A stretch of 64,000 bases of DNA, taken from Verrucomicrobiota bacterium (lineage in GTDB: Bacteria; Verrucomicrobiota; Verrucomicrobiia; Limisphaerales; J093). Both the position numbers and the translations under genes were made by a program. Location: positions 11,978-75,977 of the forward strand of contig JAAYVR010000015.1 of the NCBI GenBank assembly GCA_012517065.1, given 5' to 3'. The notes under the pieces are model-generated. The model made no database searches and was not told where the DNA came from. It was given only the letters and a program-made list of their open reading frames with translations. Below, in pieces: positions 8,615-28,985 of this stretch (within the stretch, counting starts at the first letter, position 1; each line of letters starts with the position of its first letter).

Positions 8615-10780
8615 ATGCCATACTTCCCACAAGCTGCCACAAACGATCTTATCGAATCGTCGGTTTCCCCCTCCGCAAACATCAACTTGCGGCATTATTG
8701 GCACGTCATACTCGAACGCCGGTGGCTCGTTATCGCCACTTTTGTCTCTGTCTTTGTCCTTTGCCTGGTTTATCTGTACAAGGCGCCAAAGATTTATCAG
8801 GCAACAACTCGCATCCAAATTGACCGTGAGTCGTCCACGTTCAACCTCCAGGATTTGGTTGTCTCCGGAGGCGCAGATACTGACTACCTGCAAACCCAGT
8901 ACAAAAACCTCATGAGCCGTTCGCTCATCGAAGCTGTCATAAAGAAACAAAAACTCAATGAGGACCCTAGATACGCGAAGGAACTCGACATCGCCGAAGC
9001 CGTTGCCGACGATATCACCGTCGCCCCAATCCGCATGAGCCGCCTCGTGGACGTCCGAGTCGAACATACCAACCCCAAAAAAGCCGCCGATATCGCAAAC
9101 ACCCTCGTCGAAGAATTCATCGAGCAAAACGCTGTCCTGAAACAGAAACGCACCCTCGACACACTCTTCTTCCTTAAAGCACAAGCCAACAGCCTCGAAA
9201 AAGATGTCCAAGAAGCCGAGGAAAAACTCCACAATTACCGCACTCAGGTGAAATTCGTCTCGCTCGACGAGCGCTACAATGTGATCGCTGAGGCGCTCAG
9301 CCAGGCACAATCCCGTTATACCGATGCCAAAGCAAGAGCTGAAAACGCTGAAACTGTAATCGTTGAACTGGAACAACACGTAAAGGCCGGCAAACCCGTC
9401 GAAACGTTCCCAGCAGTCGCCTCCGACCCCGTGGTCAAAGACCTGCAGCGACAACTCACTACCCAAGAAAACGATCTGGCCGTGCTCCTTAAACGGTACA
9501 AAGACAAACACCCAACCATCATCGCCGCACGATCCAGAATCGACGAAACCCGCAAGTCCCTCGATCGCACAGTCCAAAACCTCGTCGAAACTCTCCGTGC
9601 CGAAGCGCGCCTCACCCGCGTCACCGAGCAAACCATCGGATCGAACGTTAAAGATTGGGAAGAGCGCCTGACTGAATGGACCAAGGCCAAAAAGGACTAT
9701 GACATTCTTGTCCGCAAAGCCGATACCAGCAAAACACTGTTCAATCTGGTTCTTTCAAAGATGAAAGAGGTCGAGCTGCTCGGCAAGGACCGCGCCAATA
9801 ACATCAGAATAGTTGACCCAGCCTCAGTGCCCGTCAAACCAATCAAGCCCCGCATCGTGACCACTCTCTTGCTCGGCGCTTTCGGCGGTCTCGCAGTGGC
9901 CATCGGACTTGCACTGTTTGTGAATTACCTCGACGATTCAATCAAGACCCAGGACGACGTCGAAACGTACCTCCATCTGCCGTTCCTCGGTTACGTGCCA
10001 AACATCAAGTCAAACAGCGTCGTCGAGCGCGACCTCCAGTCCCACCTCCATCCTCAATCCAATGCGTCCGAAAGTTTTCGCACCGTTCGCGCAGCAATCG
10101 CCCTCGGCAGCAAAGCTGGCAAAATGCGCGTCCTGACTGTCACAAGCACAATACCTTCAGAAGGCAAGTCGCTCGTCGCATCCAACCTCGCCATCGTAAC
10201 CGCACAAACAGGACTTAAAACGCTGTTGATCGACTCTGACATGAGGCGGCCGTCGGTGCACAAGGCATTCCAATTGCACAGCCCCGTCGGACTCGCAGCA
10301 TATCTAATGGAAAAAGCACAAAGCATCGACGAGCTCATCCACACCACCGATATCCCAAATCTCGACGTGGTGTGCTGCGGCGCCACTCCATCCCAACCCT
10401 CCGAGCTTCTCGGTTCGCGTCGAATGTTGCAGTTCATGCAGGAGGTCAGCAAACGGTACGACCGCATCATAATGGACTGCCCCCCGATTTCCGCTGTCAG
10501 CGATCCTCTCGTCCTTTCCGCGATGGCCGACGGCGTTGTTTACGTCACCAAGTTCAACAAAATCCGCCGTGAACACGCGCGCAAGAGCATCCAACGCCTC
10601 CTCGATGCAGGCATTCACATTTGCGGCGTTGTCCTCAATGACATCGACTTCGAGGGCCGCGACTCTTACTACTACTCGTATTACTACTACCAGAACCGGT
10701 ATTACTCGAGCTACTACCGAAGCCGCAGTACAGGTTCAACTTCTTCCACTGCCGAACAGGCCGAGACCAAAAAGAGTTGA
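8615..10780 (+). CDS. wzc: Polysaccharide co-polymerase / tyrosine autokinase (Wzc family)
   Basis: Two TM segments flanking a coiled-coil; Walker A (STIPSEGKS), IDSDMRRP, MDCPP; C-terminal Tyr cluster SYYYSYYYYQNRYYSSYY. Confidence 0.92.
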   Translation: MPYFPQAATNDLIESSVSPSANINLRHYWHVILERRWLVIATFVSVFVLCLVYLYKAPKIYQATTRIQIDRESSTFNLQDLVVSGGADTDYLQTQYKNLMSRSLIEAVIKKQKLNEDPRYAKELDIAEAVADDITVAPIRMSRLVDVRVEHTNPKKAADIANTLVEEFIEQNAVLKQKRTLDTLFFLKAQANSLEKDVQEAEEKLHNYRTQVKFVSLDERYNVIAEALSQAQSRYTDAKARAENAETVIVELEQHVKAGKPVETFPAVASDPVVKDLQRQLTTQENDLAVLLKRYKDKHPTIIAARSRIDETRKSLDRTVQNLVETLRAEARLTRVTEQTIGSNVKDWEERLTEWTKAKKDYDILVRKADTSKTLFNLVLSKMKEVELLGKDRANNIRIVDPASVPVKPIKPRIVTTLLLGAFGGLAVAIGLALFVNYLDDSIKTQDDVETYLHLPFLGYVPNIKSNSVVERDLQSHLHPQSNASESFRTVRAAIALGSKAGKMRVLTVTSTIPSEGKSLVASNLAIVTAQTGLKTLLIDSDMRRPSVHKAFQLHSPVGLAAYLMEKAQSIDELIHTTDIPNLDVVCCGATPSQPSELLGSRRMLQFMQEVSKRYDRIIMDCPPISAVSDPLVLSAMADGVVYVTKFNKIRREHARKSIQRLLDAGIHICGVVLNDIDFEGRDSYYYSYYYYQNRYYSSYYRSRSTGSTSSTAEQAETKKS

Positions 10781-10927
10781 GTTGCTGCAAGAATACGTTC
10801 TCGCTGGAGCGGACCAATAGCACGCCCGAGTGGTTATAGTGCCTGTGTAGGTTTTTCTTCCGCAACGCATCCTGCAAACCATACAGGATGATAACCGGCA
10901 GTGCACCGAGACCACGGATCAGCCCTG

Positions 10928-11683
10928 GCCCGCATGTTCCCCAGCCCGACGTAGCCGGAACAAAATGGCCTCCCGGGCACTGCCCCGGCTCCAGCACCCC
11001 CTCGGGCTGTCCGTCACGCCTAGCTGGGAAATATGCCCCGCGACTCCATCGCTCGGAAAAGCACCAGGACCAAACCTCCACCGGACGCAACGCTGCCAGA
11101 GCAACTCCCAATCAAATGTAGCTCTTAAGCCCGAACGCTGGACTCTACTCTAATAGCCGCGGTGCTGGATTCGCCCGACGCACGGAACAACCCACCGCCG
11201 TTACAGTTCCGCGTTTACGCGAAAAACTGAAACCTTTCTGGTCCTGATTCTGGTACCCAGCGCTTTGCCCCTGAGCCAAATGCCGCCTGCGGCGTTCCAA
11301 GCCGACTACGTGTCTGTCCCCATATGGCCTGATTCGCGGTGATCCCAATAGTTTCTCACGCGCTGCCGCGGATGCAATGGGCGTTGGCAGGCGCGAAGCG
11401 TTTGGAGTGCGGCAGCTTGCTGCCGCTTTGTTTCCATGCCCAAACAACGTGTCTGTCCCCATATCGACATCCGATGGGTTCCTCCACAGACATCGGCAAC
11501 ATCGGATTGGAACAAGGGACAATTTGCGGACCACGCCGCAATCAGGGGCCAAAACCCAAATAATGAGCCTGTCCCATATTGATACTTCTCTGGCCCAAGC
11601 GCGGGTTTCCTTGGCCCGGAGATCTCACCGCCTGACCGGCCAAAGACAGCCAAGGCATTCATTGAGGTGAGATTCCCTGGTTA
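10928..11683 (+). mobile_element. Modular MITE/REP-like intergenic repeat, copy R1
   Basis: Starts GCCCGCATG; contains CAGCCCGACGTAGCCGGAAC, two GTGTCTGTCCCCATAT, TTGGAGTGCGGCAGCTTGCTGCCGCTTT and an ATCTCACC/GGTGAGAT pair shared with other copies. Confidence 0.75.
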
Positions 11684-11698
11684 GGCACACTCAAATGG

Positions 11699-12220
11699 TC
11701 ATTCAAGCGAGATGTCCTGACTAAAGTCCGAAAGGCGTTCCCGAAGCGGCTGCAGATCGGGGTCAACCTTCGCCATTTGCAGCACTGTTGATCGCCCCCC
11801 AACCGCCATTGCGCGTTGAAGCAGTCCCCACGCTTCGTCAACATGACCGGATTGCGCCGCGTAACAGGCGAGATTGTAAGGAACAAGAAAAGCCTTGGGA
11901 AACTTCTCAAGCGCAGGGTGCAGGAGCGACCATGCCTTTTCCAGCCCGCCATCTTTCATCCGTCTCGCTGCAAAAGCCCGAACAATCCAGCCATCTACTT
12001 CGTCAGGAAGCAATGCCACAAGCCGCTCTGCGATCCGAAAAGCCGCATCCCAATCGCCCAACTTGGCCCTGATCTCCCACTCCACCCGAAGCACATCGGG
12101 TGAATTCCGGTTGGACGATCGTATCCGATCCAGCTCGCCAAGCGCCGAAACAGCGTCGCCAAGCAACAGCCAGGCCCGGGCTTCTTCGAGAGCTAAGTTA
12201 TCCGGCTCGCTCAACGGCAT
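11699..12220 (-). CDS. Tetratricopeptide-repeat protein
   Basis: Helical repeats ending YNLACYAAQSGHVDEA...DPDLQPL, a common TPR C-terminal module. Confidence 0.8.
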   Translation of the reverse strand: MPLSEPDNLALEEARAWLLLGDAVSALGELDRIRSSNRNSPDVLRVEWEIRAKLGDWDAAFRIAERLVALLPDEVDGWIVRAFAARRMKDGGLEKAWSLLHPALEKFPKAFLVPYNLACYAAQSGHVDEAWGLLQRAMAVGGRSTVLQMAKVDPDLQPLRERLSDFSQDISLE

Positions 12221-12449
12221 AAAAACTTTGCGATCTGCAGCTTCTGACGGAGCAACAACCCAGTTGTTCCAGTGCTACGCGTGACCCGCATCTTGAATAA
12301 CAGGACTCCGCCCGAAGCAACAAGCACACACACAGCGTGCAATGATCGCACAGTAATTCTAACCAACCAACCCAACTCCCACAATCCGAAGTTCAAGCGG
12401 GAATCCAAGCCGCACCGCGGGCAACTTTTCGGCAGAGTTGCGCTTCGAT

Positions 12450-12501
12450 ATTTTTTTGAAAAAATTGTTGACGTGATGTTCCGCAATGTGCTAATTATAA
12501 G
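12450..12501 (+). promoter_or_regulatory. Possible sigma70-type promoter with AT-rich upstream element
   Basis: TTTTTTTGAAAAAATT followed by TTGACG (12468-12473) and an AT-rich TGCTAATTATAA box; the -10 register is imperfect. Confidence 0.35.
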
Positions 12502-12531
12502 CCTGCGTACGGTGGAACATATTTTGTGCCT

Positions 12532-13188
12532 ATGAAAAGGGAGCATACAAAGTGGGTTTTGGCCCTCGTTTTAGCGGGGTCCATCGGTGTCATTTCTACG
12601 CAGGCAGTTGCCGGCGTTGAATCAAAGGGTGCTGTGGTTAGCAAGGCCATGATGGGAGTGCGCGTGCCTGAGTTGGCTGCTAAAGCAGCAGTGCTTGTCA
12701 AGCAGGCCGATATTGGAGACCGCGAGGCCATTGCGGTGGCCGTGGTCGAATATGTGGCCAAGGCATATCCTGCTGCAGTTAAATCTGTCATTTCCTCCAT
12801 AGCAAAAGCGGAGCCTTCTCTTGCGCCAAAGATTGCTGCGAGGGCTGCTGAGTTGCTTCCTCAAGACAGTGTGGCTTTGGCGTCGGCAGCCGCATTGGGA
12901 GCCAAGCAGTTTGCCCCACAGGTCGCTGCCAGTGTCGCCAAGGCGAATCCAAAAATGGCCCCAGAAGTCACTGAGACAGTCATATTGGCCGTTCCGCAAG
13001 AAGCCGTTCGAACTGCCGATGCAGTGGCTGCCTCAGTGCCTTCCGCCAAGGATTCACTGCCCGTAATCGAGCGCTCTGCAATGGCAAGTGGCGGCACGCC
13101 TATCATCATCCAACGCAAGAAGCCCATTCCTCCATCCCAGAGCTTGACGGGACAGGATACGCCTGGGTACGACTACGCGCGCCCTTAA
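12532..13188 (+). CDS. Secreted alanine-rich helical-repeat hypothetical protein
   Basis: Signal peptide MKREHTKWVLALVLAGSIGVISTQAVA; repeated A..P..A..(I/V) helical units; followed by a terminator. Confidence 0.75.
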   Translation: MKREHTKWVLALVLAGSIGVISTQAVAGVESKGAVVSKAMMGVRVPELAAKAAVLVKQADIGDREAIAVAVVEYVAKAYPAAVKSVISSIAKAEPSLAPKIAARAAELLPQDSVALASAAALGAKQFAPQVAASVAKANPKMAPEVTETVILAVPQEAVRTADAVAASVPSAKDSLPVIERSAMASGGTPIIIQRKKPIPPSQSLTGQDTPGYDYARP

Positions 13189-17430: not shown

Positions 17431-18927
17431 TCAATCCGGCCCGGCGCGATACAGCTCTTGAATTGCTTCGGTGCTGATGGCGCAGCCGTAAATACGCACG
17501 TCGTCGATCCACCCGTCAAAATGGTGTTGGCGCTCAGACATGCTTGCACCGATAACAACATTGGCGACCGGAGTTGACAGTATCTCGCCGGCGGCAGACA
17601 TGGCATCGTCTTCAACGCCGTCCACGTAAAGCGCAGCGCGCAGGCCATCATAGGTCGCTGCGATGTGGTGCCATTGACCGTCGGCCACCGGCCGTTTTGA
17701 AACCAGGACTACTTGGTTTGTCTTACTGCTGGTCTCTGGCTTCGGCCCAACCAAAACGAACCGGACGGCGTCACGTTCGCCGTTGCGTTCGATACGCCAT
17801 GCGTTGTCTGATCTGTTGATGATCGCCTGGTTCGGCTTGTCGAACTCGCGCACTTTCATCCATACCGAAACAGTCATTTCACTGCGGCAATCCATCGCGG
17901 GCGAGGATTTACAATCGACGTAACCTCTTGACCCATTAAGTTCTATAGCGCCGCCGAACCTGCCTTTCCCGGGCGCCCACATTACAGGACCTCGAAGCTG
18001 TGCCGTATGCCAGCAACCGGACGCATCGGGAACCTCAGTGCCGGTTGTTTCTTCGAACTTCCACCAAGCCACCAACCCGGTCGTACGAAAAGCCGCAACC
18101 CTGCCCGATACAACCCTGCCCCGAGCAGGCACGGCATCGACCCGCCAATAGTACGTCGTGTCGGGCTTAAGCTCCGATAGTTCAAACCGGAGCTGATCTG
18201 TCGTTCCGATCCGCCTGAGTGCGTCGGCGCCGATTCCGAGATAAACACTGTACGCGCTCGCATCAGGGACGGGGGTCCATTCGAGCGCTGTTCGTCTTAT
18301 CCCAACGCCGGTGGAACCGTCTTCGGGCTTGAGTGGTGCGGCACGTGCTGATACAGCTTCGCGAAAGACGACCTCGCTGATACCAACGGCTGAACCGGTC
18401 CCGAATGACACGAGGTTCTCGAATCGGACTTTTCGTGCCTTGACACCGTTCAATCGCAGGACGGTCCGCTGATCATAATCGGGGTTTCCTTCGGCTTCAG
18501 TGAACTCGGCGCCGGCCAAAGCTGTCTCCCACGTCGAACCGTCAGTTGAGACTCTGATGTCGGCACGGCGAACGCCATTTGTTGTTTGCCACGGATCGTT
18601 GAAGTTCCAAATCTCGATAGAGGCCAAAGGCACGGCCTCGGGCAACTCGAACTCGACGAACAAATCAGGCGCGCGCTGCGCCATCCACATGTTTCTCTTC
18701 TCGCAATCGTGCTCGAAAAGCCCGTCGCCGTCCGTGTCGGCCAAACCAGAGCCATCGGCAATGGCGGCGACATTCACACCAGATTCAGGCGCGTTGGCTC
18801 GAACGCTCGAAACCCGCACTTTCGGATTCGCAGTTGTGGGTTTGCGATCCCGCGCCTTTAGCGCAACCGGCTGTTTGAGTACAACAAAAGGAGTGTCGAA
18901 CTCGAGAGTTGCCGTAACAGGACGCAC
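17431..18927 (-). CDS. Discoidin(F5/8)-like + FN3-like + LamG-like segment; probably the C-terminal half of a UGA-readthrough protein 17431..20175
   Basis: IEIWNFN...GVRRADIRVSTDG..W; LKPDTTYYWRVDA; GLVAWWKFEE...DASG; DGQWHHIAATYDG...LYVDG...FDGWIDDVRIY. No signal peptide of its own; in frame with 18970..20175. Confidence 0.8.
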   Translation of the reverse strand: MRPVTATLEFDTPFVVLKQPVALKARDRKPTTANPKVRVSSVRANAPESGVNVAAIADGSGLADTDGDGLFEHDCEKRNMWMAQRAPDLFVEFELPEAVPLASIEIWNFNDPWQTTNGVRRADIRVSTDGSTWETALAGAEFTEAEGNPDYDQRTVLRLNGVKARKVRFENLVSFGTGSAVGISEVVFREAVSARAAPLKPEDGSTGVGIRRTALEWTPVPDASAYSVYLGIGADALRRIGTTDQLRFELSELKPDTTYYWRVDAVPARGRVVSGRVAAFRTTGLVAWWKFEETTGTEVPDASGCWHTAQLRGPVMWAPGKGRFGGAIELNGSRGYVDCKSSPAMDCRSEMTVSVWMKVREFDKPNQAIINRSDNAWRIERNGERDAVRFVLVGPKPETSSKTNQVVLVSKRPVADGQWHHIAATYDGLRAALYVDGVEDDAMSAAGEILSTPVANVVIGASMSERQHHFDGWIDDVRIYGCAISTEAIQELYRAGPD

Positions 18928-18972
18928 AACGTTCTTTGGCTCTCGCCATGAGAGCGCACAAACGCCGCCTCA
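18926..18972 (-). other. In-frame UGA plus candidate bacterial SECIS element
   Basis: Minus strand TGA GGCGGCGTT TGTGC GCTCTC-ATGGC-GAGAGC CAAAG AACGTTGT: perfect 6-bp upper stem 14 nt after UGA, G-containing loop, lower stem GCGGCGTT/AACGTTGT. Confidence 0.65.
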
Positions 18973-20175
18973 CCCAAATTGGAACGAACTGACCTTGCGA
19001 TAAGTGCCATCAACGCTTGCAAGGACAAGCTTGGGCGGCTGTGGGCGTTGCTTGTTTCGCAGCACAGTAACCGATTCCCCGAGCCGGCCCTGCAACTTCA
19101 GACCAACTGAGATGGGGTCTTTGGCACTCTTTGCTTCCGTGACTTCAAGGATCGAAAGAACCGGTTCACCGATGTCGAATCGAACGCTCTGATCCACCCC
19201 CAGCGCAAATCGTCCGTTTGCGCCGAAATCATCGCCAACCAACTGCCACGTCGCTCCCTTGTTGTCCTTGCGTTCGATTGTCCAGGACAGAATCTGGTAG
19301 GTTCCTGCGGGGAGTGTGAAACTGCCATTAGATGGGTTGCGAGTGAAGTGACCCGTTGGACCAGCGGCGGTAAACTCGGAGATCGTTTCAGGCACGGTGA
19401 CGGTCCCAAACTTGATGTCGCGAGCCTTTTCGACCTTTACGAAAGCACCGTCACGCGCAACTTCTATCCTGAACAATTGGCCATCGACCTCAACCAGCCG
19501 CCCCAGGTAACGATCGATCCTCTGATCAGTTTCCGTTGCTTTGTCGGGACTCAGAATCAGCCTGTCTGTATCTGCGGTGTCCCACCCGATGTCATCGAAT
19601 GCACCGTTAACGTTGCTGTCCACCAATCTGACCCGATATTTCTTGCCGCCAAAGTCAACATCACCCTCATACCAGCAAGCCGAACTGATATAGACACGGT
19701 CATACTGGTAATAGCGGACAATAACGTGGTACGTCACCGGCCCGTCCTCGGTTTGGAAAACGACACGAGCCGGATCGAAAATGGCGGCGTAAGCGCTGAC
19801 ATCGCCCGAAACGGCCGGATCGTCATCGAGCCGCCCGTTGCCATTCGAATCAATGAAAAGCTTGTTGGGAATCCCACGCTTGGTCGTTCTGTCGAGGCAA
19901 ATCCAGCGGAACCCGGCTTTGTCCATCGGCGTTTTCCAACGCGCGAACACAGGCTTGCCTTGAAGTTGCGGCAAAGCCAGATTCGGCGGCTGGTTGGTCA
20001 GCAGAACGATCCACTGATAAGCCGGAGCTTCATCGCACGTGTGGTATTGCAGCCATTGCTCCGGTTGGGCAAAAAGACGACACGCAAACCAAAGGAGTGC
20101 ACAGCTACCCCATACGCACGCTGCTCGGCGCAAGTTCACTTTATGATTACTACCATAGTTCGCCCCGTTACGCAA
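18970..20175 (-). CDS. Secreted hypothetical protein; probably the N-terminal half of a selenoprotein
   Basis: Signal peptide (RRAACVWGSCALLWFACRLFA-QP); two Ca-loop-like motifs (DSNGNGRLDD, DSNVNGAFDD); ends abruptly FQFG-UGA with the frame still open; start may be GTG 20139. Confidence 0.75.
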   Translation of the reverse strand: MRNGANYGSNHKVNLRRAACVWGSCALLWFACRLFAQPEQWLQYHTCDEAPAYQWIVLLTNQPPNLALPQLQGKPVFARWKTPMDKAGFRWICLDRTTKRGIPNKLFIDSNGNGRLDDDPAVSGDVSAYAAIFDPARVVFQTEDGPVTYHVIVRYYQYDRVYISSACWYEGDVDFGGKKYRVRLVDSNVNGAFDDIGWDTADTDRLILSPDKATETDQRIDRYLGRLVEVDGQLFRIEVARDGAFVKVEKARDIKFGTVTVPETISEFTAAGPTGHFTRNPSNGSFTLPAGTYQILSWTIERKDNKGATWQLVGDDFGANGRFALGVDQSVRFDIGEPVLSILEVTEAKSAKDPISVGLKLQGRLGESVTVLRNKQRPQPPKLVLASVDGTYRKVSSFQFG

Positions 20176-20229: not shown

Positions 20230-20850
20230 TCAAAACCTGCTCTGTGGCATGGTCCCCAGAAGCTTGAAAAGCAACCATGCCGCCGCCGCGAGAAACCCCA
20301 GCGCAATAACCCCCGCAATCCACTTGAACAATCGGGCTTGAAATCTAATTCGCTCCGTCTGCGCATACTGTTCCTCCTGAAGCCGAGCGAGTTGTGCAGT
20401 CAGGTGCTCAGGCAATGCCGGTCCCTCGCGCAAAACGAGTGTAAGCCATCTGCCCGAACCATCACCGAATGCCTTTGGCAAAGTCACCAGTTCGTCGTTG
20501 TCCGGCTGCCGAAACCCGGCTGATCGCCAAAAACCGGTTACAATGCCTTTCATCCAAAGCCGTTCGCACCCGTGGTTGCGCGCCAAAACAAGAAGCTTCT
20601 CCCACAAGAAGGGACGCACCTGTTCTTCCTGGTGCGCAGAGGAAAAGGATTCGCCGTAAATGAGCCCGTGCGCCCCCGAGACTCGCAAACCCATCGTACC
20701 GACAAGAACCCCGTCAGGTCGCACCACGACCTGAAAATCTGTCAGGTGCTTTTCAAGATCCAGCACAGGCAGGCACGCAGTCTCCCACAGGCCCCGCAGC
20801 ACGGGCAAATCATCCAGATTTGCTCTGCGAATCGAATACTCGCTTTGCAT
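20230..20850 (-). CDS. GNAT-fold (ArgA-like) protein with C-terminal membrane anchor
   Basis: IRRANLDDLPVLRGLWETACLPVLDLE...ARNHGCERLW...FWRSAGF GNAT pattern; C-terminal hydrophobic helix; ATG 20850 preferred as start. Confidence 0.65.
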   Translation of the reverse strand: MQSEYSIRRANLDDLPVLRGLWETACLPVLDLEKHLTDFQVVVRPDGVLVGTMGLRVSGAHGLIYGESFSSAHQEEQVRPFLWEKLLVLARNHGCERLWMKGIVTGFWRSAGFRQPDNDELVTLPKAFGDGSGRWLTLVLREGPALPEHLTAQLARLQEEQYAQTERIRFQARLFKWIAGVIALGFLAAAAWLLFKLLGTMPQSRF

Positions 20851-21019
20851 CAACGCCTCTCGCCTGCAACGTCCCGCCCCGGCACGGCCGGAAAACATCA
20901 GCGCAACAGAAATCTACATAACTTGACGCGACAATGCCCATTTCCATTCAGCGTGGAGCACCCCGGAGACGCATTACCCCAGAATCAAAGACACACTATC
21001 ATCTTCACACCTGCTGTCT

Positions 21020-21631
21020 TCAATTCCCCTGCTTGTTTTTCTTGAACTGGATTTTGATTGTGTCCAGCAACCTGCTGGCAAACGATTTGCGCTTCGGGGG
21101 CGCCGCAACGCCTGTCACCGGCTGGCAGGAGCCGCTGCACGCCGGACAAAAGAGGCGCGATTTCCCGCCCACCAAGTGCAGCTCGCGCACACAAGCCTCA
21201 CAATACATTCGACCGCATTGAGTGCACTTGAGCACAGCCTCGATGCCGGGATGGTTAATACAAGCGGGGCGACCGTCATCAAGCGTCGTCTGGACGGGTT
21301 CGGCAGGTTTCGGCAACGGAGGAATGGATATCTCGGCAGGCAACACAGAAAGCCGCATCTCCATGCTGCCAAGCATCAGCACCTGGCCATTTCTGATCTC
21401 GGCGTCGAGTACGCGCCGGTTGTCAATCCATGTGCCATTTGTTGAGCCCAAATCACGAACGCGAACAGAGAAGTCCGTGACAATGACCTCGCAGTGCCTG
21501 GCCGAAACAGTGACATCGTTCAAAACGAAGTCATTGGCTTCCGCGCGCCCAAGAAAATTGGACCCCCGTTGCAACTCGAGTTCATCGCCCTTTTGAGCGC
21601 CGTTCAATATGATCAGCCGGGCTGTGGCCAT
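21020..21631 (-). CDS. FHA domain protein with C-terminal B-box-like zinc finger
   Basis: LGRAEAND...VSARHC...DLGSTNGTW (FHA); CINHPGIEAVLKCTQCGRMYCEAC...CPAC; ATG 21631. Confidence 0.88.
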   Translation of the reverse strand: MATARLIILNGAQKGDELELQRGSNFLGRAEANDFVLNDVTVSARHCEVIVTDFSVRVRDLGSTNGTWIDNRRVLDAEIRNGQVLMLGSMEMRLSVLPAEISIPPLPKPAEPVQTTLDDGRPACINHPGIEAVLKCTQCGRMYCEACVRELHLVGGKSRLFCPACSGSCQPVTGVAAPPKRKSFASRLLDTIKIQFKKNKQGN

Positions 21632-21946
21632 ATAACTCACTTGTTTTGCTGCTCGAAATGATACTACCATAATGCACCTTAACCGCAACTGCAGAGAATC
21701 GGGATCAAGACGGACCAGACCATTGCAAATTGACAACGGCCCTCAACACCCGCGCACGAACTTAAGGCTGGCATAAACCAAGCAGTGTCGGTATGGTCAA
21801 TAAATGAACTCGGCCAACCAGGCTTCTTGGGCGACTGGCACATGATTGCGCGAACGGGAATGCACGTGTGGTTGCAGTAGCGCCTTGCGTCCCAGTTCCC
21901 TGTGCGGTTGCTTTGAAGACAAGGCAGTCGAACGCCGTCCATTAAC

Positions 21947-24019
21947 ATGATTATGGCTAGAGCAAGCGGTTATGCGCGGGCAACAGCCGCAGTGGCGGCC
22001 TGCGCCATAGTCATTTCTTTGCTCACTTCGTGCCAGAACCAGAAGGTTACCGGTGGAAGCAGTGTCAAGTACCCGCCTCCTCCAGCAGCAGAGACGTCTG
22101 ACAGCCAATCACCCCCCCCGAACAAGACCTCCGCAAAGCAGCAAAAGCAGAAGTCAAAACAGGCCCCTGTCAAATACAGCACAAGCTACGAAAACGAAAT
22201 CAAAGAGGTATTTGATCTCGCTGAAAAAGGGGATTGGGACGCAGCCGAGAACCGCGCAAACGCCCTTTACGCAAGGGAACCCCGGGACCCGGCTGTTCAA
22301 CGCCTCCGCGAATGGGTCAGAAAACGGCGTGAGCAAAGCCGTGAACGCGCAATCGAAGACCGCATAAGGACCCTTGACGCCCGCGATTCAGTTTTTAATC
22401 CAACACTCAAGAGTCTTGCGACCGAAAAGAAAGACCGCGGTCTTCCGCCCAGAAAAGACGTTCGGGACGCGGTTCAGCAAATAGAAGCCACACCTTATAT
22501 ACCGCCGACCTATGGCAAGACGAACATATTGGCAGACACCGGGCTGCTTTTTGATTTCGAATCCCGCCAAGGTCGAATGTCCAAAATCTTGGATAAAGAG
22601 ATTTCCGTTCACCTCGACGACGCCACACTCGAATCAATCATTTTCACAATCGGCCAGGCTGAAGGAATCAATTTTGTCGCTGACAAGTCCTTGCCTGCAT
22701 TCCAGACGAAAATGAGCATCAACATGCATCGAGTTAAGCTATCCGAATTCCTGCGTTACGTGTCGCGAAACCTCGACCTTCAATTCCAGGTGGGCGACGA
22801 TCTTGTCTGGATAGTCGATGCCAAGGACCCGAAGAAGATAATGGAAGAAACACGATTCTACCGCTTGCGCAAAGGCTTTATCCTCCCCGCCCAACTTGGG
22901 CCAAGCGAGGTGGTCCGCACCGAAACCAGGGCGCAAAACGCCGTCACAGTCACCGAAGTCCAGAAGGTCGATAGATTCGTAAACGACCTGGCGCCGCCCA
23001 CGCCATCCATCGAGCGCGCAATCACAAACTTCTTCACCGGCAAGTACCAGATCGACTACGAACGGAACATCATAGTTGCGCGTGGCACACGCGAACAGTT
23101 GGACGTGCTCGAGCAGATAATCAAGGAATTCGATCAACCAATCCAGCAGGTGCTCATCGAGGCAAGGTTTATTACTGTGACTCAGGGCGCATTTCTGCGC
23201 CTCGGAGTTATTTGGGGATCAAAAGGTGGCGACCTTGTTGTTGAAGCGCCCGCTGATCAACTTGGCATGGCGAAGCTGCCCGTTTCCTCTGCTTTCACAT
23301 GGAATTGGACGAACGTTTTTGGCGTGCCGGATTTGTCGGCCGTTCTGACAGCACTCGAACAGTCAGGCGAAAGCCAGGAACTCAGCGCCCCACGTCTCAC
23401 CGTTCTCAACAACCTGCCCGCAACCATCTCCGACGGCAAAGTGCAGTACTACTATGAAGAGTACCAGGTGAAAACCACCATACTCGAGCGCCGTTCGTCA
23501 TCCCAACTCGTGCCAGCCGGAAAACCCACCAAGATCACCGCCGGCGCTTCGTTGGAAGTCCTGGCAAGCATAGGCGGCGACGGAAAAACCGTGCTGCTTG
23601 CTCTGAATCCGAAGGTGAATTCGGACGTGCAACTCACACCTTTCATGACAATCACTGACACCGACGACACCGGCAAAGTTGTCAGCAAAGTGGATATTCG
23701 CCTTCCGGAGTACCGCACCCAAGACCTCGCAACGCGCGTGGCCGTCCAGTCCGGCCAAACGGTCGTCATGGGCGGTGTCCTCGAACGTCAGCAGAATACG
23801 TATGTCGAGTCAGTTCCAGTACTCGGCAACCTGCCGATTATTGGCCCAATTTTCAGGCGCCGAACCGAGATTGACCGGCCCCGGTACCTGTTGATTTTTG
23901 TCACGGCTACCATTTTGTCCGAAACCGGCGAGTACGTTATTTACACACAGGAACCTTCAACCCAAAACCGTCCAACACCACGACCGGACGAGCAGGCAAC
24001 CCCGGCACAGACTCCGTAA
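21947..24019 (+). CDS. Secretin (GspD/PilQ family), predicted lipoprotein
   Basis: Lipobox LLTSC; STN/N-domain; QVLIEARFI, SAPRLTVLNN, GQTVVMGG...VPVLGNLPIIGPIFR...LLIFVTATI. Confidence 0.92.
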   Translation: MIMARASGYARATAAVAACAIVISLLTSCQNQKVTGGSSVKYPPPPAAETSDSQSPPPNKTSAKQQKQKSKQAPVKYSTSYENEIKEVFDLAEKGDWDAAENRANALYAREPRDPAVQRLREWVRKRREQSRERAIEDRIRTLDARDSVFNPTLKSLATEKKDRGLPPRKDVRDAVQQIEATPYIPPTYGKTNILADTGLLFDFESRQGRMSKILDKEISVHLDDATLESIIFTIGQAEGINFVADKSLPAFQTKMSINMHRVKLSEFLRYVSRNLDLQFQVGDDLVWIVDAKDPKKIMEETRFYRLRKGFILPAQLGPSEVVRTETRAQNAVTVTEVQKVDRFVNDLAPPTPSIERAITNFFTGKYQIDYERNIIVARGTREQLDVLEQIIKEFDQPIQQVLIEARFITVTQGAFLRLGVIWGSKGGDLVVEAPADQLGMAKLPVSSAFTWNWTNVFGVPDLSAVLTALEQSGESQELSAPRLTVLNNLPATISDGKVQYYYEEYQVKTTILERRSSSQLVPAGKPTKITAGASLEVLASIGGDGKTVLLALNPKVNSDVQLTPFMTITDTDDTGKVVSKVDIRLPEYRTQDLATRVAVQSGQTVVMGGVLERQQNTYVESVPVLGNLPIIGPIFRRRTEIDRPRYLLIFVTATILSETGEYVIYTQEPSTQNRPTPRPDEQATPAQTP

Positions 24020-25857
24020 TGGCTCGCGTTCGCGTTTCCATTCTTCAGCACATTGTGCCACTGGCATGCCACCGCGTGCTGGTCATAGACCCGGGACGCC
24101 GCCAGCTCAAACTGCTCCTGGCTGAATCCAGACTCGGCAGGTTCCGCGTCGTCCACCGCCAAGCCGTCAGCGTCCCGGAAGAAGGCGCTCTCGACCCGGA
24201 TGAAATGCGCCAGCACATGGCGTTGCTTGTTCCAGAACTTGGCGCGCATCAGACTGCTATTGTGCTTCCTCAGCACAAGGCCATAACTCAAACAATAGAC
24301 CTCCCGCACAATCACCTTCAGGCGCCCCGCGAGTACCTCGTTGCAGAAGCACGCAAGTTGAGCGGTCTTTCCGAAGACGAATTGGCTGTCGCATTCACTC
24401 GGCTCCAACCATGGGCAACTTTGAGCCACCCGCATGTGCTCTCGTTCTGCAAACGCAAAGAACTCGATTTGTTGATCGATCAGTTCGCACCCGAAAAAAG
24501 CGAAGACGCAGACGAAGATGATCAGTTGATCGAAATAACCACCACCGCCCAGGGACTAATAGCCGCCAGCAGAACGCTCCACCCGCCTCCACTCGACGCG
24601 GTACTCGTGGACCTCGGCGCCCAGGAAACAACCGTGGTGATTCTCGTGGCAGGACAGGGCGTCTTCGCAACCAGTTTCGAGGGTGGTAGTGACAGCTTCA
24701 CCCGCGCCCTGCTCGAAGCTGGTTGCACCACTGCCGAGGAAGCTGAATCTGCCCAGCGTGCAACAGATTTCTTCCAAGGACCAAACACGGCGCAGGCCTT
24801 GGTCAGCACTGTTACCAAATGGCACACCGAGCTCACCCGCTGTATAACCGAATGGACGGATGACAACCCTGCTTTGAAGATCGCCCCCGGCGATCTGCCC
24901 GTGTACCTCGCAGGCGGCGGCGCCGCACAAAAGGGACTGGTCGATTACCTGAACAAGCTCGGTCCGATGCGCTTCCAATGTTGGCCCAACCCACCCGGAG
25001 CCAGCCCAATGGACAGTTTCTGGGTCGCATGCGGAGTGGCTCGAGTCGCTCTCGGCAAAGAACCCGGCCGTTTGTCTTTCCTGCCGGATGATTTTCAGCA
25101 ACGTCGTGCCAAACGCGCTTTCTGGGAAGCCGTCCAAGCCGCCGTGTTTGCGCTTTTGGTAACTGTCGCGACTCTGCTCTCGGTCGGCACGTGGCAGAAC
25201 TCCAAGCTTCTCGAGCGCAAACGCGCGCTCATCGCTCAAACAACAAGCGCCCTCGAGTCGGCCCGTGCTGTTGGTGAACTCATGCAACAGGTGGACGCCA
25301 AATATGCCGCTCTGCGTCCAATCATACTGCGCCGGGCGCAAACCATCGCAACCCTGCAGAGTTGGACCGCCGTAAACCAGGTACGCACAAACAACGATTA
25401 CTGGATGGTCCTGTTCGCCGACAGCCTCAGTTACCTCGAAGGCGCTACTGCACCACAAGCTTCCACGAACCAAGCTGCCCTTGGACCTGCGCAAACGCAC
25501 CTCAATCCCGGCCGCCGCGCAGAATTCGTTACCGAGGTCTGCATTCCGCAGCAGGGCGAACCTGCCCGCAGAATCTTGAACCAGTTCGTTCTCTCCCTGA
25601 AAGGGCTTGGAGTATTCGCCCGAGTCGATGAACTGCCAGCCGAACGAAAGCGCGAAATCGTCGATCCGCGAGTGATAATCAGCAACCAGGTTTATGGCGT
25701 GTCCATGGAAATGGCGCCGCCATCGCCTCTGGGAGCCGAAGACTCCGAATTCCGGCGGAACAGTTCGCCCGGTGCGTCGCGGCGGCTCCCGGCTCCAGCG
25801 TCCACGAACAACCAACCAGAGGCGCCAACGCCCACCGCCACATCGACCAACCGCTGA
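24019..25857 (+). CDS. PilM/GspL-like actin-fold protein fused to a TM helix and a PilN-like region
   Basis: LVIDPG, VLVDLGAQET, GGSDSFTRAL, VYLAGGGA...GLVDYL actin-like motifs, then a TM helix and coiled-coil. Confidence 0.75.
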   Translation: MARVRVSILQHIVPLACHRVLVIDPGRRQLKLLLAESRLGRFRVVHRQAVSVPEEGALDPDEMRQHMALLVPELGAHQTAIVLPQHKAITQTIDLPHNHLQAPREYLVAEARKLSGLSEDELAVAFTRLQPWATLSHPHVLSFCKRKELDLLIDQFAPEKSEDADEDDQLIEITTTAQGLIAASRTLHPPPLDAVLVDLGAQETTVVILVAGQGVFATSFEGGSDSFTRALLEAGCTTAEEAESAQRATDFFQGPNTAQALVSTVTKWHTELTRCITEWTDDNPALKIAPGDLPVYLAGGGAAQKGLVDYLNKLGPMRFQCWPNPPGASPMDSFWVACGVARVALGKEPGRLSFLPDDFQQRRAKRAFWEAVQAAVFALLVTVATLLSVGTWQNSKLLERKRALIAQTTSALESARAVGELMQQVDAKYAALRPIILRRAQTIATLQSWTAVNQVRTNNDYWMVLFADSLSYLEGATAPQASTNQAALGPAQTHLNPGRRAEFVTEVCIPQQGEPARRILNQFVLSLKGLGVFARVDELPAERKREIVDPRVIISNQVYGVSMEMAPPSPLGAEDSEFRRNSSPGASRRLPAPASTNNQPEAPTPTATSTNR

Positions 25858-25865
25858 ACAGCGCC

Positions 25866-26717
25866 ATGGCACTCATATCCCACATAAAATGGTTCCCTTC
25901 CGCCGCGTTCATCGCAACAGTGCTGCTTGGTGCATATTACAGGCTTGCGTACCAGCCTCTGGTCCGTGCCTCAGCGGCACAAGACAAGGAACTCGTCACC
26001 CTGTGGGGCCGATTGGTGTCGAGCAATGAACAGGTTCGCGCGTGCCGTGGGCTGTCGATAGAAAACCACAACGAACGCGTCATGGAATTGAATGGTGCAT
26101 TGGCCAACCTCGATCGAGCTCAGGAACTGATCAAACAACGCATCGAAATAGGCGTCGCCACTCGCGCCAAAATGGAGCAACCATGGCAATTGATAGATTT
26201 TCAAATCGAGCGCCTCCAACAGGCCGGCGCACTTTTGCGCATCGCCAAGGAAAATCGTGTTACTGTTGAAGCCGCCGCTCTTGCAGGACTGCCAGAGTAC
26301 TCGGTGGACCTTCCCGAGCCGCGTTTGCTCTGGCCAAGGCTTGACATGGCAGCGCAGCTCCTGACCGCGGCGATCCAAAGCAAGGTAACCTCGATTCGAA
26401 ACATCAATCAGTTAAGCCCAATCACGCACCCGGGACCAACACGCGATGCGCCTGCGCTTGAAGAAGTCGCCATGCGAATCGAGTTGGTCGGCTCCGCAGA
26501 ATCCGCAACTCGCTTCCTCAAAAGCATTCCCGCAACCGGCGATCGGTTGGTCGCATTGGGATTCACAGGCACCGTGACAAACAAACCTGTCTTTTTCATC
26601 GACAAGGTCCTGGTCCGCAAATTTGCCCCCGACCGGCCCGGCGAGGTCCAGCTCGAAGCCCGTGTTTGCGGGTTCGTTCCATGGCCAACCGGACAAAATG
26701 CCGGAGGCGCCCGTTGA
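25866..26717 (+). CDS. PilO/GspM-like assembly protein (possibly Amuc_1100-like)
   Basis: N-terminal TM helix, coiled-coil and ferredoxin-like C-terminus (MRIELVGSAESATRFL...FFIDKVLV); position after the PilM/N-like gene. Confidence 0.6.
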   Translation: MALISHIKWFPSAAFIATVLLGAYYRLAYQPLVRASAAQDKELVTLWGRLVSSNEQVRACRGLSIENHNERVMELNGALANLDRAQELIKQRIEIGVATRAKMEQPWQLIDFQIERLQQAGALLRIAKENRVTVEAAALAGLPEYSVDLPEPRLLWPRLDMAAQLLTAAIQSKVTSIRNINQLSPITHPGPTRDAPALEEVAMRIELVGSAESATRFLKSIPATGDRLVALGFTGTVTNKPVFFIDKVLVRKFAPDRPGEVQLEARVCGFVPWPTGQNAGGAR

Positions 26718-26730
26718 CGAGAATCGACCT

Positions 26731-27234
26731 ATGGTAAGGCTTTTCGAGCGCAAAACCTGGGTGTCAGCCGCAATAGCCTTCGCGCTGTTGGTGCTCGCTG
26801 TGGCTGTCGCTGTGAACCTGCGTGGCACGCTGCCAGATTTGAAGCCGCTGCCCGCAAGAAACCCGCCACCAATTCACTTCTCGAATGAGACCGAAGAACA
26901 GGGCTGGCAGACTTTGGACGCTTCCCTCCAAGTTCAATTGCCTACGAATGTCATCAATCCTTTCTTCACACTCCACTTCCAGCCGCCGCCGCCGCCGCCA
27001 ACCAAGAAGGTTGCATTGCAATATCAAGGTTGTCTCATGTCCTCAAAAGGCGTCGGACTCGCTTATGTCCTTGTGGACAAGTCGCTCCTGATCCTGACCA
27101 ACGGCGCACGCGTGGTCGCCGATCATGCAATAAGCGAAATCGGGGTGACAAACCTTACTTTGACCAACAGCGCCGGGGTTACGAACATCCTGAAGTTCAG
27201 AACAACAACGGTGCTCGAAGTCCCAGCCTCCTGA
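26731..27234 (+). CDS. PilP/GspC-like bitopic protein
   Basis: N-terminal TM helix, NPFF + poly-Pro linker, small beta domain (LQYQG...AYV); sits between the PilO-like gene and the ATPase. Confidence 0.55.
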   Translation: MVRLFERKTWVSAAIAFALLVLAVAVAVNLRGTLPDLKPLPARNPPPIHFSNETEEQGWQTLDASLQVQLPTNVINPFFTLHFQPPPPPPTKKVALQYQGCLMSSKGVGLAYVLVDKSLLILTNGARVVADHAISEIGVTNLTLTNSAGVTNILKFRTTTVLEVPAS

Positions 27235-27236
27235 GC

Positions 27237-28985
27237 ATGGATACACAACCGTCAAAAAAAGAAGTCGGCGACATCCTCCACGAACGAGGAAAGTTGACCG
27301 ATGCTCAGTTGGACACAATCCGAAGACGCCAACAACGCTGGCACACCCCACAACACGTCGCCATACTCAATCTCGGTTACGCTTCCGAGGAGGACACTTA
27401 TCGCGCCCTGGCAGAGCTTCACCAAATTGAGTTCCGCGACCTTGCCAATTTTCAGTTCTCCGATTCTCTGAAGGAACTCGTGCCGGTCGCCGTCATGCTC
27501 AATTACAGAGTACTGCCACTCGGATCAGAACCCGACGCACTCATTCTCGCTTTCACCGAACCACCCCGCCAAACAGAAATCAACAACCTCAGGCTTCTCC
27601 TCAACCGCAAAATCAAACCCGTCCTCATTACCCCAAGCTGCCTGCGAGCAATCATCAGACAACACTTCGGCCTCGGCGCCGAGACAATTCAGCGCCTCCG
27701 CGAAGACCGCGAACTCAAGGACGGTGCAAGAGAGATCGTCTTCGACATCACAACCGGCGAAGGCACACCCGCTGTCGATGCAAGCATCTCACGGCTCGTC
27801 GAGCAAATCCTCTCAGAAGCCCTTCGCCTCTCCGCAAGTGACATCCATATCGAGCCGTACCCTTCCGCAATCCGACTCCGCTATCGCATCGACGGTGTAT
27901 TGCAGTCCGTGCCCGTGCCCGCTGATCTGCGTCAAATCTACGCTGCGTTGGTTTCACGACTCAAAATCATGGCCGGTCTGGACATAACCGAGAAACGCGT
28001 CCCGCATGACGGCCGCATTTCAATGAAAACTGAACGCGAGGAATATGACCTGCGCGTATCCATCATCCCAACCAAACACGGCGAAAGCATCTGCCTGCGC
28101 ATCCTCGGGCGCCAAAGCCTGTTCTTGGACTTGAAAGAGTTGGGTCTCAATCCTTCCCAAGAAGAGCTCATCCGACAGCTCACGCAGCTCCCTCAAGGGT
28201 TGGTCCTGTTGACTGGCCCAACAGGCAGTGGCAAAACCACAACGTTGTATGCCGCCCTCGCTCATGCCAACGACGAAGGCCGCAAAATCATCACCATCGA
28301 GGACCCTGTCGAGTACCAATTGGAAGGAGTCATCCAAATACAGGTCTGGGAAGAGGTCGGCCTCACGTTCGCAAGCGGTTTGCGCTCAATCCTCCGGCAT
28401 GACCCCGACGTTGTCCTGATCGGAGAAATTCGCGATCCCGAAACAGCAGAGATAGCTGTTCGCGCCGCCCAAACCGGGCATCTGGTTTTCTCCACAGTTC
28501 ATACCAACGACAGCGTCAGCGTCGTGACCAGGCTGCTGGACATGGGCGTGGAACCATTCTTGCTAGGTTCTTCCCTTGTTTGCAGCATTGCCCAACGCCT
28601 CGCCCAGCGCATATGTCCACATTGCAAGGAACCCGACACATCCATTCCCAAGCAGTTCCGTGAAGAAATGGCAACTGCATTGGCAATCAACCCTGCCGAC
28701 CTGCGAGCTTTCCACGGCGCCGGCTGCATCGAATGCAACAACAAAGGACACCGAGGCCGCGTAGCGCTTTATGAGTTCTTTGTCATGACGGAAGAGATCG
28801 CCGACATGCTGGGCTCGAGAGTACCCACGGGCCAGTTGCGTGCTGCAGCGCGCGAACGAGGTTGGCGATGCCTGCGCGATGAAGGCTGGGCCAAGGTCCA
28901 GGCAGGTCTGATCCCCATCGCCGAACTCCAAAGGCTCACGAGGAGAATCATCCCGCCTCCCTCATTGATAACACCCTCAAAATAG
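27237..28985 (+). CDS. Type II secretion / type IV pilus assembly ATPase (GspE/PilB family)
   Basis: ASDIHIEP, GPTGSGKTTTL, TIEDPVE, DPDVVLIGEIRD, TGHLVFSTVHTN, two CxxC; ATG 27237 lies 2 nt after the previous stop. Confidence 0.93.
   Translation: MDTQPSKKEVGDILHERGKLTDAQLDTIRRRQQRWHTPQHVAILNLGYASEEDTYRALAELHQIEFRDLANFQFSDSLKELVPVAVMLNYRVLPLGSEPDALILAFTEPPRQTEINNLRLLLNRKIKPVLITPSCLRAIIRQHFGLGAETIQRLREDRELKDGAREIVFDITTGEGTPAVDASISRLVEQILSEALRLSASDIHIEPYPSAIRLRYRIDGVLQSVPVPADLRQIYAALVSRLKIMAGLDITEKRVPHDGRISMKTEREEYDLRVSIIPTKHGESICLRILGRQSLFLDLKELGLNPSQEELIRQLTQLPQGLVLLTGPTGSGKTTTLYAALAHANDEGRKIITIEDPVEYQLEGVIQIQVWEEVGLTFASGLRSILRHDPDVVLIGEIRDPETAEIAVRAAQTGHLVFSTVHTNDSVSVVTRLLDMGVEPFLLGSSLVCSIAQRLAQRICPHCKEPDTSIPKQFREEMATALAINPADLRAFHGAGCIECNNKGHRGRVALYEFFVMTEEIADMLGSRVPTGQLRAAARERGWRCLRDEGWAKVQAGLIPIAELQRLTRRIIPPPSLITPSK

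Follow-up and report, generated by a model that had tools for sequence, protein, structure and literature searches.

We describe here a predicted selenoprotein gene in a 64,000-nucleotide stretch of DNA from a Verrucomicrobiota bacterium (contig JAAYVR010000015.1); this whole stretch is called the window, and positions refer to it unless a locus is named. Positions 17431-20175 of the minus strand very probably form one gene for an exported, selenocysteine (Sec)-containing protein, a member of a large family whose sequences are cut at the UGA codon by public gene calls. We infer from sequence that Sec insertion depends on SelB, that the product is exported and that Sec402 and Cys406 form a reactive pair in a hairpin exposed to the outside. 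Judged by conservation and covariation in more than 100 sequences, the feature is beyond chance and the TGA is no accident. The predicted family is mainly found in Verrucomicrobiota and amounts to about 1074 clusters (50% identity, E ≤ 0.001).

Identification of a gene with an in-frame TGA

Two open reading frames (ORFs), 18970..20175 (401 aa, TTG start) and 17431..18927 (498 aa), share a minus-strand frame. A first-pass annotation, made by a model from the letters alone, had proposed that a single in-frame TGA joins them. This was borne out by the ORF list and by a translation with TGA read as Sec (U), which ran through 914 residues to a terminal stop and met only one internal stop, the TGA at 18970-18972. 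The context of this codon is SSFQFG-U-GGVCALSWREP, the surrounding letters being YRKVSSFQFG-U-GGVCALSWREPKN. The start codon is uncertain: translation could begin with the TTG at 20175 or some 12 codons further in. Full-length homologues of the same architecture were present in loci L023 and L105.

Conservation of the TGA column

A six-frame search of 41 genomes (G000, the window's genome, and 40 relatives) with the read-through protein as query matched the N-terminal part in G030, G005, G012 and G007, and exactly one TGA was inside each match. In all five genes, including that of the window, the TGA occupied the same column of the motif F-E/Q-Y/F-G-U-G-G-x-C-S/A-L-S-W-R-E-P. When 12 genes from 10 related genomes were read at the DNA level, TGA was again found at one column (F-E/Q-Y/F-G-U-G-G/F-x-C-x-x-x-W). 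An even draw of 401 genomes of the phylum was searched with a 460-aa query (E ≤ 1e-10); five genomes matched, and each of the six matches, at 25-29% identity, had one TGA at this column. Motif variants in the phylum sample included FEFG-U-GGSCAYSWRVP and FEYG-U-GFTCSATWRGP, and tandem paralogues had a TGA of their own in each copy. A profile of the Sec domain (A4, built from 98 Sec-domain sequences and applied to the phylum sample at E ≤ 1e-6) gave 21 matches, all with one TGA.

Metagenome contigs were scanned with a degenerate motif pattern in which the Sec codon was NNN. The scan returned at least 120 stretches, 80 of which were taken as loci; all 85 pattern matches in these 80 loci were TGA, with TGT, TGC and other codons at zero.

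Protein databases contained 519 relatives of the 401-aa ORF at E ≤ 0.001 among 4610 candidates. Among the matches listed, 120 of 120 ended in F-x-[FYW]-G, exactly at the position of the TGA, all source names were "hypothetical protein", and the organism labels were Verrucomicrobiota/Verrucomicrobiia, except for one metagenome-assembled genome (MAG) labelled Bacillota. The first 460 residues were also compared with 1.84 billion representatives of clusters at 50% identity, and the number of matches fell from 1074 at E ≤ 0.001 to 413 at 1e-10 and 167 at 1e-30. Among the 150 best representatives, 129 ended in [FYWHRA]G; six of the other 21 crossed the column and the rest were fragments or had other ends.

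The first-pass annotation had expected coding conservation on both sides of the TGA and no other stop codon in its place, and both expectations held. Conservation carried on past the TGA (alignments A1 and A4), neither TAA nor TAG was found at the Sec column among homologues read at the DNA level, and TGA lay at the identical column in all TGA-bearing relatives. The G, C and W straight after the TGA were invariant, while the Gly and Cys codons varied at third positions, and the frame stayed open for at least 38 codons in every relative read in which the contig was long enough.

These observations bear on two explanations that do not involve Sec. One is that the window's genome has at this place a pseudogene lesion or an error of sequencing or assembly, a possibility which the first-pass annotation had also named. 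It has nothing but the bare stop codon in its favor and a negligible chance of being right, being already refuted by the occurrence of the same TGA in more than 100 independent assemblies, from a near-identical relative (P0002, 97% identity) to distant ones (21-25%). The other is that the TGA is a true stop ending a secreted protein of about 400 residues, with the downstream frame separate or untranslated and the hairpin described below serving mRNA stability or translational coupling. It agrees with the fact that all public gene calls end at the TGA, that TGA is the commonest stop of this genome and that a GTG is located 15 codons downstream in the window. However, the continuing frame and the invariant G, C and W argue against it, as do the many members with only about 41 codons left, too short for a separate gene, the loss of four strands from the Sec domain and the confinement of the family to selA-positive genomes (both below), and we consider it very improbable.

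A SECIS-like hairpin downstream of the TGA

If the codon is translated as Sec, a bacterial selenocysteine insertion sequence (bSECIS) should follow it. The first-pass annotation had pointed to a perfect 6-bp stem with a 5-nt loop 14 nt past the UGA, and RNAfold and covariation in 106 relatives confirmed it. The stem pairs 18955-18950 with 18944-18939 around the loop 18949-18945, which places the loop 20 nt from the UGA. The isolated hairpin has a minimum free energy (MFE) of -9.4 kcal/mol and was also drawn by RNAfold within an 86-nt region.

We aligned 106 distinct 63-nt segments around the TGA, which were selected by motif and come from relatives that are not independent, and the shuffle counts below are not probabilities. 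With the U of UGA as nt 1, the six stem pairs (nt 18-23 with 29-34) were able to pair in 99.2% of 636 cells, compared with 84.8% in shuffles. Both sides had changed in 77 cells, and the covariation of 0.424 (0.128 in shuffles) was reached by 0 of 500 shuffles. In slid controls, in which the partner was moved by 1-3 columns, pairing was 23-64%. Several pair types were found at single positions: UA 54, CG 30, UG 14, GC 6, AU 1 and GU 1 at pair 19-33; AU 75, UA 16, CG 7, GU 4, GC 1 and other 3 at pair 20-32; and UA 85, UG 10, AU 8, CG 2 and GC 1 at pair 22-30. The stems CUCUC/GAGAG, UACUC/GAGUA and GCCAC/GUGGC encode LSWRE, YSWRV and ATWRG, respectively; the stem is kept while the encoded residues change, as an RNA constraint predicts. 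The loops were GUGGC in 61 relatives, AUGGC in 39, AUGGA in four, and AUGGG and GUGGU in one each, and their UGG is the codon of the invariant Trp. The mean MFE of the hairpin in the 106 relatives was -9.4 kcal/mol, with 86 of them at or below -7.5.

The bSECIS model given in section 5 of PMC13188914 has a loop of 3-9 nt, a stem of 4-16 bp, a distance of 16-37 nt from the UGA and an MFE ≤ -7.5, and further asks for a G in the first two loop positions. In distance, stem, loop length and MFE (20 nt, 6 bp, 5 nt and -9.4 kcal/mol), the window hairpin lies inside these ranges; the position of its loop G is taken up below. A canonical SECIS is present in 87.4% of BSepDB entries according to the BSepDB paper. 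Rfam at gathering thresholds had no match in the window, a result of little weight given its narrow coverage of bSECIS elements.

Two details of the hairpin in the first-pass annotation did not stand. The lower stem it had drawn is a property of the window sequence only, as only 18 to 56 of the 106 relatives can pair at the flanking positions. The GTG of the downstream ORF, said to lie inside the hairpin, is in this window-specific lower stem and not in the apical hairpin.

Sec machinery and distribution of the family

The window's genome (95% complete, 298 contigs) contains selA, selB, selD and tRNA-Sec, the set that the first-pass annotation had proposed to look for. selB (279.6 bits) and selA (535 bits) are side by side on C107, selD (335.9 bits) is on C248, and ARAGORN reported a tRNA-SeC with anticodon TCA on C202. 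A tRNA-Sec was likewise present in G002, G005, G007, G012 and G030. selB scored over the family cut-off in G030, G189, G240 and G348 and slightly under it in G374 (236.8 versus 242.25 bits), and selA occurred in 22 of the 41 genomes, including the holders G002, G005, G007 and G012. In G030, tRNA-Sec scored 74 bits and selB 333 bits; the ORF upstream of this selB (L053:3752-4891) had no Pfam match.

Of the 401 phylum genomes, 23 were selA-positive, and the A4 profile found the family in 13 genomes of 10 genera: 13 of the 23 selA-positive genomes and none of the 378 selA-negative ones. In G415 and G302, about 0.5 kb separates a family gene from selA, and in G213 this distance is 6.5 kb. The family gene of G348 lies 3-9 kb from selA/selB, and that of G005 has tRNA-Sec at about 6 kb and selA at 12 kb. 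Family members were also found beside selA-selB in metagenome loci L083 and L100. In L100, a gene at 1705-3273 (+), near selA, selB and a 174-residue family member, encodes a SelD-like protein (AIRS and AIRS_C) fused to a carboxymuconolactone decarboxylase (CMD/AhpD-like) domain.

The window's genome has a second member of the family, C27:20401-22497 (+) (L056:2091-4187), with the motif FEFG-U-GGTCSYSWRVP and the stem GUACUC/GAGUAC. A Sec-type FdhA was not found in this genome (the best match to TIGR01553, at 91.7 bits, had no stop), and its SelD contains no internal stop.

A further explanation is that the UGA is read through without Sec, a near-cognate or suppressor tRNA putting in Trp, Cys, Arg or Gly and the hairpin being a stimulator. 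Stop-codon read-through stimulated by a downstream structure is known in general. In addition, UGA-to-Trp reassignment in some Verrucomicrobiota is reported in the abstract of PMC13462651. Of the 1648 open frames in the window's genome that reach 400 codons or more, 990 end at TGA, as does the window gene itself; four of seven Pfam-supported neighbor genes stop at TGA, with none inside them. A code change is excluded because TGA is the usual terminator in this genome, and the single internal TGA per gene points the same way. Nor would such read-through explain that all 13 holders are selA-positive against 0 of 378 selA-negative genomes, or that family genes are physically linked to selA, selB and tRNA-Sec; and with an ordinary residue needed here, it would be strange for all 85 NNN-pattern matches to lack a sense codon. 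We hold read-through without Sec to be highly unlikely. In the reading we prefer, SelB and tRNA-Sec would insert Sec at the UGA, guided by the hairpin that follows after 20 nt.

Structure and domain architecture

Residues 30-460 of the window protein were modeled with AlphaFold2 from 132 aligned sequences. The model was all beta, with a pLDDT of 93.8 and a pTM of 0.89. Sec, at model residue 373, was placed in the last domain (307-414), where a turn connects strand 364-368 to strand 377-381. As four strands of this Sec domain are encoded beyond the UGA, a protein ending at that codon would have the domain cut in half. A thioredoxin-fold oxidoreductase was considered as the identity of the protein but does not fit the all-beta model, in which Sec lies in an immunoglobulin (Ig)-like sandwich. 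Foldseek found no global relative of the 431-residue model in the PDB (TM ≤ 0.22). VIA-align of the Sec domain returned many sandwiches of the Ig, fibronectin type III (FN3) and macroglobulin (MG) type (Z ≤ 7.2, and Z ≤ 9.7 with a second model), a similarity at the level of a common fold.

Among 98 Sec domains, G-U-G, C at +4 and W at +8 were invariant, and P, F, R and P were near-invariant; Pfam gave three weak MG2 touches on these domains and nothing further. What follows the Sec domain varied. Of 98 genes with a complete tail, 47 had at most 60 codons after Sec and nothing further (in many members only about 41 codons), 12 had 61-150 codons, 34 had 151-350 codons, mostly with a membrane domain of 7-8 helices, and five had more than 350 codons, namely the window gene (LamG-type), L105 and three others. 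Single anchor helices were found in L023, L107 and L125 (tails of 100-569 codons). The smallest members, of 174-220 residues, consist of a membrane anchor and one Sec domain. At the other end of the range, L105 (914 aa) has a Laminin_G_3 tail and the same overall length as the window protein. In the second member of the window's genome, a 7-8-helix membrane domain of about 290 residues, without Pfam or structural relative, follows the Sec part. A membrane-domain model reached a pLDDT of 80.9, and the Sec plus membrane-domain model had no Foldseek match at E ≤ 0.001 and one unconvincing helical row in VIA-align (Z 7.9).

The conserved unit of the family is the N-terminal region together with the Ig-like Sec domain of about 110 aa, and the constant part is the Sec domain. 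As tail lengths vary among members, the discoidin/FN3/LamG tail is an accessory of one subgroup. The adhesion modules of the first-pass annotation are thus present in the window protein, but as an optional C-terminal addition and not as part of the conserved unit. Its individual domain calls fared similarly: Pfam recovered the discoidin-like and LamG-like domains, with F5_F8_type_C at 31.7 bits (cut-off 28.2) and Laminin_G_3 at 93.8 bits (cut-off 27.6), whereas the FN3-like call was weak. Residues 1-490 had no Pfam match, and NCBIfam gave TafC alone, on the LamG part and far under its cut-off. No Pfam or NCBIfam family matched the N-terminal all-beta region, and Foldseek gave no global match to it. 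The EQW at the start of the mature part is conserved in alignment A1. Features of the gene are listed in Table 1.

Table 1. Predicted features of the selenoprotein gene, in window positions.
Feature	Position	Strand	Basis
Read-through coding sequence, 914 residues; terminal stop TGA 17431-17433	17431..20175	-	ORF list and translation with TGA as U
N-terminal hydrophobic leader, likely a signal peptide ending ...RLFAQP/EQW (slash marks the putative cleavage point)	20068..20175	-	Sequence inspection by eye
N-terminal all-beta region, residues ~37-335, with D-x-N-x-N/D-G-x-x-D/N-D motifs	19171..20067	-	Model, pLDDT mostly >90
Sec-bearing Ig/FN3/MG-like beta-sandwich, residues 336-443	18847..19170	-	Sec402 in the turn between two strands
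In-frame TGA, predicted Sec, residue 402; motif FQFG-U-GGVC-ALSW-REP	18970..18972	-	Conserved column
SECIS-like apical hairpin, 6-bp stem GCUCUC/GAGAGC and loop AUGGC	18939..18955	-	RNAfold and covariation
F5/8 type C (discoidin-like) domain, residues 493-589	18409..18699	-	Pfam, E 1.9e-7
FN3-like stretch, residues 630-687, weak	18115..18288	-	Pfam fn3, E 0.013, under cut-off
Laminin_G_3 (concanavalin A-like) domain, residues 748-906	17458..17934	-	Pfam, E 1.5e-26

Neighboring genes

In the window, the selenoprotein gene is immediately preceded on its own strand by a 222-residue ORF with a C-terminal hydrophobic helix (20230-20898, minus strand; no Pfam match at E ≤ 1e-4). An FHA/B-box zinc-finger protein (21020-21736, minus strand) adjoins a cluster of secretin, PilM-like and T2SS-T4P ATPase genes (21947-28985, plus strand); relative to the selenoprotein gene, the 21020-28985 group is upstream and divergent.

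To characterize the wider neighborhood, 83 ORFs from 12 long loci were scanned against Pfam. Recurrent neighbors were selA/selB, in two of the 12 loci, and NapH-like Fer4_5 membrane proteins, in three. These NapH-like 4Fe-4S proteins occur near members of the RYSWRVP type (L059:13149-14018, L076:80-946 and L079:841-1710). In L076, a gene at 1029-2723 (+) between the Fer4_5 gene and the family member encodes a deiodinase-like domain, in which a separate in-frame TGA occurs (...SSYT-U-PPF...), fused to an MtrC/MtrF-like multiheme cytochrome part. The hairpins downstream of that TGA differ from those of the family, and the gene is probably a selenoprotein of known type in an unusual fusion.

Members with the SWREP motif, the subgroup of the window protein, had a different neighbor: very large secreted proteins with CarboxypepD_reg repeats and a C-terminal thioredoxin-fold domain (Thioredoxin_8/AhpC-TSA). 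This domain lacks any CxxC and has [FW]-D-x-x-Q-R-[PS]-S-R at the CxxC position. By local tblastn, such a neighbor was present in 13 of 16 SWREP loci, directly downstream in 12. Of the three loci without it, two had too little flank and the third was the window. In the window's genome the putative partner gene is on a separate contig (C265:929-4159 (+), locus L177). Further proteins of this kind are L103:9728-13057, L105:7228-9837 and 10000-13044, L125:971-9981 and L127:4096-7362.

Possible function

In the proposed model, the exported product would consist of the N-terminal all-beta region and the Ig-like Sec domain, followed in the window's subgroup by the discoidin, FN3 and LamG modules. 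Sec would be presented at the tip of a beta-hairpin as G-U-G-G-x-C, ahead of the invariant W and the near-invariant R and P. Sec402 and Cys406 could then form an exposed redox-active (selenylsulfide) center outside the cytoplasm, and SWREP proteins would probably work with their conserved CarboxypepD_reg/thioredoxin-fold neighbor. A U...C redox pair in the window protein is plausible. An extracytoplasmic redox role as such is a tentative assignment, which we favor on account of this pair, of the adjoining Trp (invariant) and Arg (near-invariant), of the putative thioredoxin-fold partner and of neighbors of the Fe-S and cytochrome kinds.

Sec might also be inserted for a purpose other than redox chemistry, namely the binding of a soft metal or metalloid (Cu, Hg, As or Se) or the covalent carriage of sulfur or selenium in the manner of SoxY. 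Weak, generic matches to the metal-binding sandwiches HftA, Tp34, FtrA-P19 and CrdA (Z 5.2-5.5), a weak SoxYZ match (Foldseek E 0.035), the fusion of one subgroup to a 7-8-helix membrane domain and the NapH-like Fer4_5 neighbors in three of 12 loci could be read in this way. The structural matches, however, are at the level expected of any Ig-like domain, and the conserved thioredoxin-fold neighbor points toward thiol/selenol chemistry; this explanation, the chief functional alternative, appears somewhat less likely than a redox role.

A broader and more speculative proposal, which we regard as improbable, is that the Ig-like Sec hairpin founds a Sec-obligate extracytoplasmic class that is the main reason why Verrucomicrobiota keep their Sec machinery, and that it is one half of a split surface oxidoreductase with the thioredoxin-fold partner. 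In SWREP members, the U-x-x-x-C hairpin would supply in trans the redox center missing from the CxxC-less neighbor. That the family could be the main reason for keeping the machinery is suggested because the window's genome has two copies of the family and neither a Sec-type FdhA nor a Sec-type SelD, because 13 of the 23 selA-positive genomes have the family, and because the gene is often beside selA.

Observations that weigh against a Sec-containing redox protein

Several observations count against the assignment of 17431-20175 as a Sec-containing gene or against parts of the model built on it. First, Cys homologues aligned with Sec, which are usually expected of a selenoprotein family, were all but absent. 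The single TGT form, in L054 (a 3.1-kb contig of a Pirellulales MAG; gene 1634-3140, +), has the hairpin intact and an in-frame TAA elsewhere; it may represent a recent replacement of Sec by Cys, an assembly error or a pseudogene. Other codons at the column are rare. The representative P0186 has Leu (FAYG-L-SGTC...), and P0131, P0202, P0239, P0246 and P0270 cross the column in another kind of loop, from which the U-x-x-x-C pair is missing. Second, the whole 86-nt region folds no better than shuffles (z -0.73), and the window loop, AUGGC, has its G at positions 3-4, outside the first two under the strict consensus. The first-pass annotation had itself raised this caveat; an A.C closing pair would be needed to bring a G to position 2. 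It holds for the window; among the relatives, 62 of 106 have a loop that starts with G (GUGGC 61, GUGGU 1). Third, G030 (91% complete), which holds a TGA-containing full-length homologue, has no selA match at E ≤ 0.001. Fourth, the partner gene is not adjacent in the window, where the downstream neighbor is a convergent nucleoside:H+ symporter. Fifth, the relatives are kin to one another, and counts such as those of TGA-bearing genes overstate their statistical weight. Finally, the redox function and the interaction with a partner are solely what we infer.

Cys and untruncated forms were sought by further searches. A contig scan with a Cys pattern, which finds Cys forms only, gave 33 stretches, one of them a relative. 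A search with the A4 profile for longer (untruncated) proteins gave one match, which itself ended early, and a search with region 340-460 of P0001, the window protein, for untruncated or Cys forms gave none among 128 candidates; the word index restricted both searches, and their results count for little. Outside the cell, selenium would have the advantage of resisting irreversible oxidation, and a requirement for this property would agree with the near lack of Cys forms. As to distribution, L054 places the family outside Verrucomicrobiota.

Comparison with known selenoproteins

Like bacterial selenoproteins in general, the window gene has a UGA, a small hairpin (6-bp stem, 5-nt loop with GG) 20 nt beyond it and a nearby Cys, and the family occurs in genomes with Sec machinery, often near selA/selB. 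It differs from them in the AUGGC loop of the window, in the UGG that doubles as a Trp codon and in having hardly any Cys homologues. TsoA ('LULAxC', NF045695), UGSC (NF041046), DUF1573 ('UGC', PF07610) and OS_HP2 (NF041425) are also families found computationally, with a short Sec motif and a nearby Cys, and TsoA even has the same U-x-x-x-C spacing (PMC13188914, Table 1). The present family is set apart from these by G-U-G-G/F-x-C on an Ig-like fold. NCBIfam selenoprotein models had no match to P0001 and none to 18 full-length members at E ≤ 1; on the 98 Sec domains there was one OS_HP2 touch at noise level (E 0.0074).

Thioredoxin-fold selenoproteins (Trx, Grx, Prx, DsbA-like and others) are the majority of known families in the account given in section 7 of PMC13188914. 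They share with the window family a Sec with a Cys a few residues away, suggesting thiol/selenol redox chemistry. However, the window family has an Ig/FN3/MG-like sandwich and U-x-x-x-C instead of UxxC, and the thioredoxin fold is found in a separate neighbor protein without CxxC.

The SoxY sulfur carrier is Ig-like and bears a Gly-flanked reactive Cys on a C-terminal GGCGG arm. SoxY and the present family thus both have an Ig-like periplasmic or predicted extracytoplasmic domain presenting a Gly-flanked chalcogen nucleophile, but in the latter the residue would be Sec in an internal beta-hairpin and not on a C-terminal arm. The structural signal consisted of the one weak Foldseek row mentioned above (2oxh_A), and no sox genes were among the neighbors covered by the general Pfam scan of loci.

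The first-pass annotation had suggested a possible new selenoprotein family, and this holds against Pfam, NCBIfam and the 119 families and subfamilies in Table 1 of a 2026 review (PMC13188914). In Table 1 and section 7 of that review, the motif, fold or architecture of the family had no counterpart, and "Verrucomicrobi" occurred 0 times in the text available of PMC13188914, PMC12013277, PMC13326102 and PMC5029168. No description of the family was found in the literature to the extent that it was accessible; supplements (S9 of PMC4807772, Table S2 of PMC13326102 and of PMC12013277) could list one. The family is real, apparently undescribed, and predicted to be Sec-obligate and extracytoplasmic, and apparently uses the ordinary bacterial mechanism of Sec insertion.

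Implications

If Sec insertion holds true, "hypothetical proteins" of about 385 residues, numbering from hundreds to thousands in public databases, would be truncated halves of selenoproteins, and the separately called downstream halves (LamG and membrane proteins) would be mis-annotated too. To a catalogue dominated by thioredoxin-fold, cytoplasmic or anaerobe-associated enzymes, it would contribute a group that is both large and phylogenetically coherent, and with it an Ig-like fold, an extracellular location and a near-absolute dependence of the family on Sec over Cys. The natural alignment of bSECIS variants, with the loop R-UGG-C in which UGG is also a Trp codon, would be useful for SECIS predictors. 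In addition, the family hints at selenium use in Verrucomicrobiota of soils, sediments and waters.

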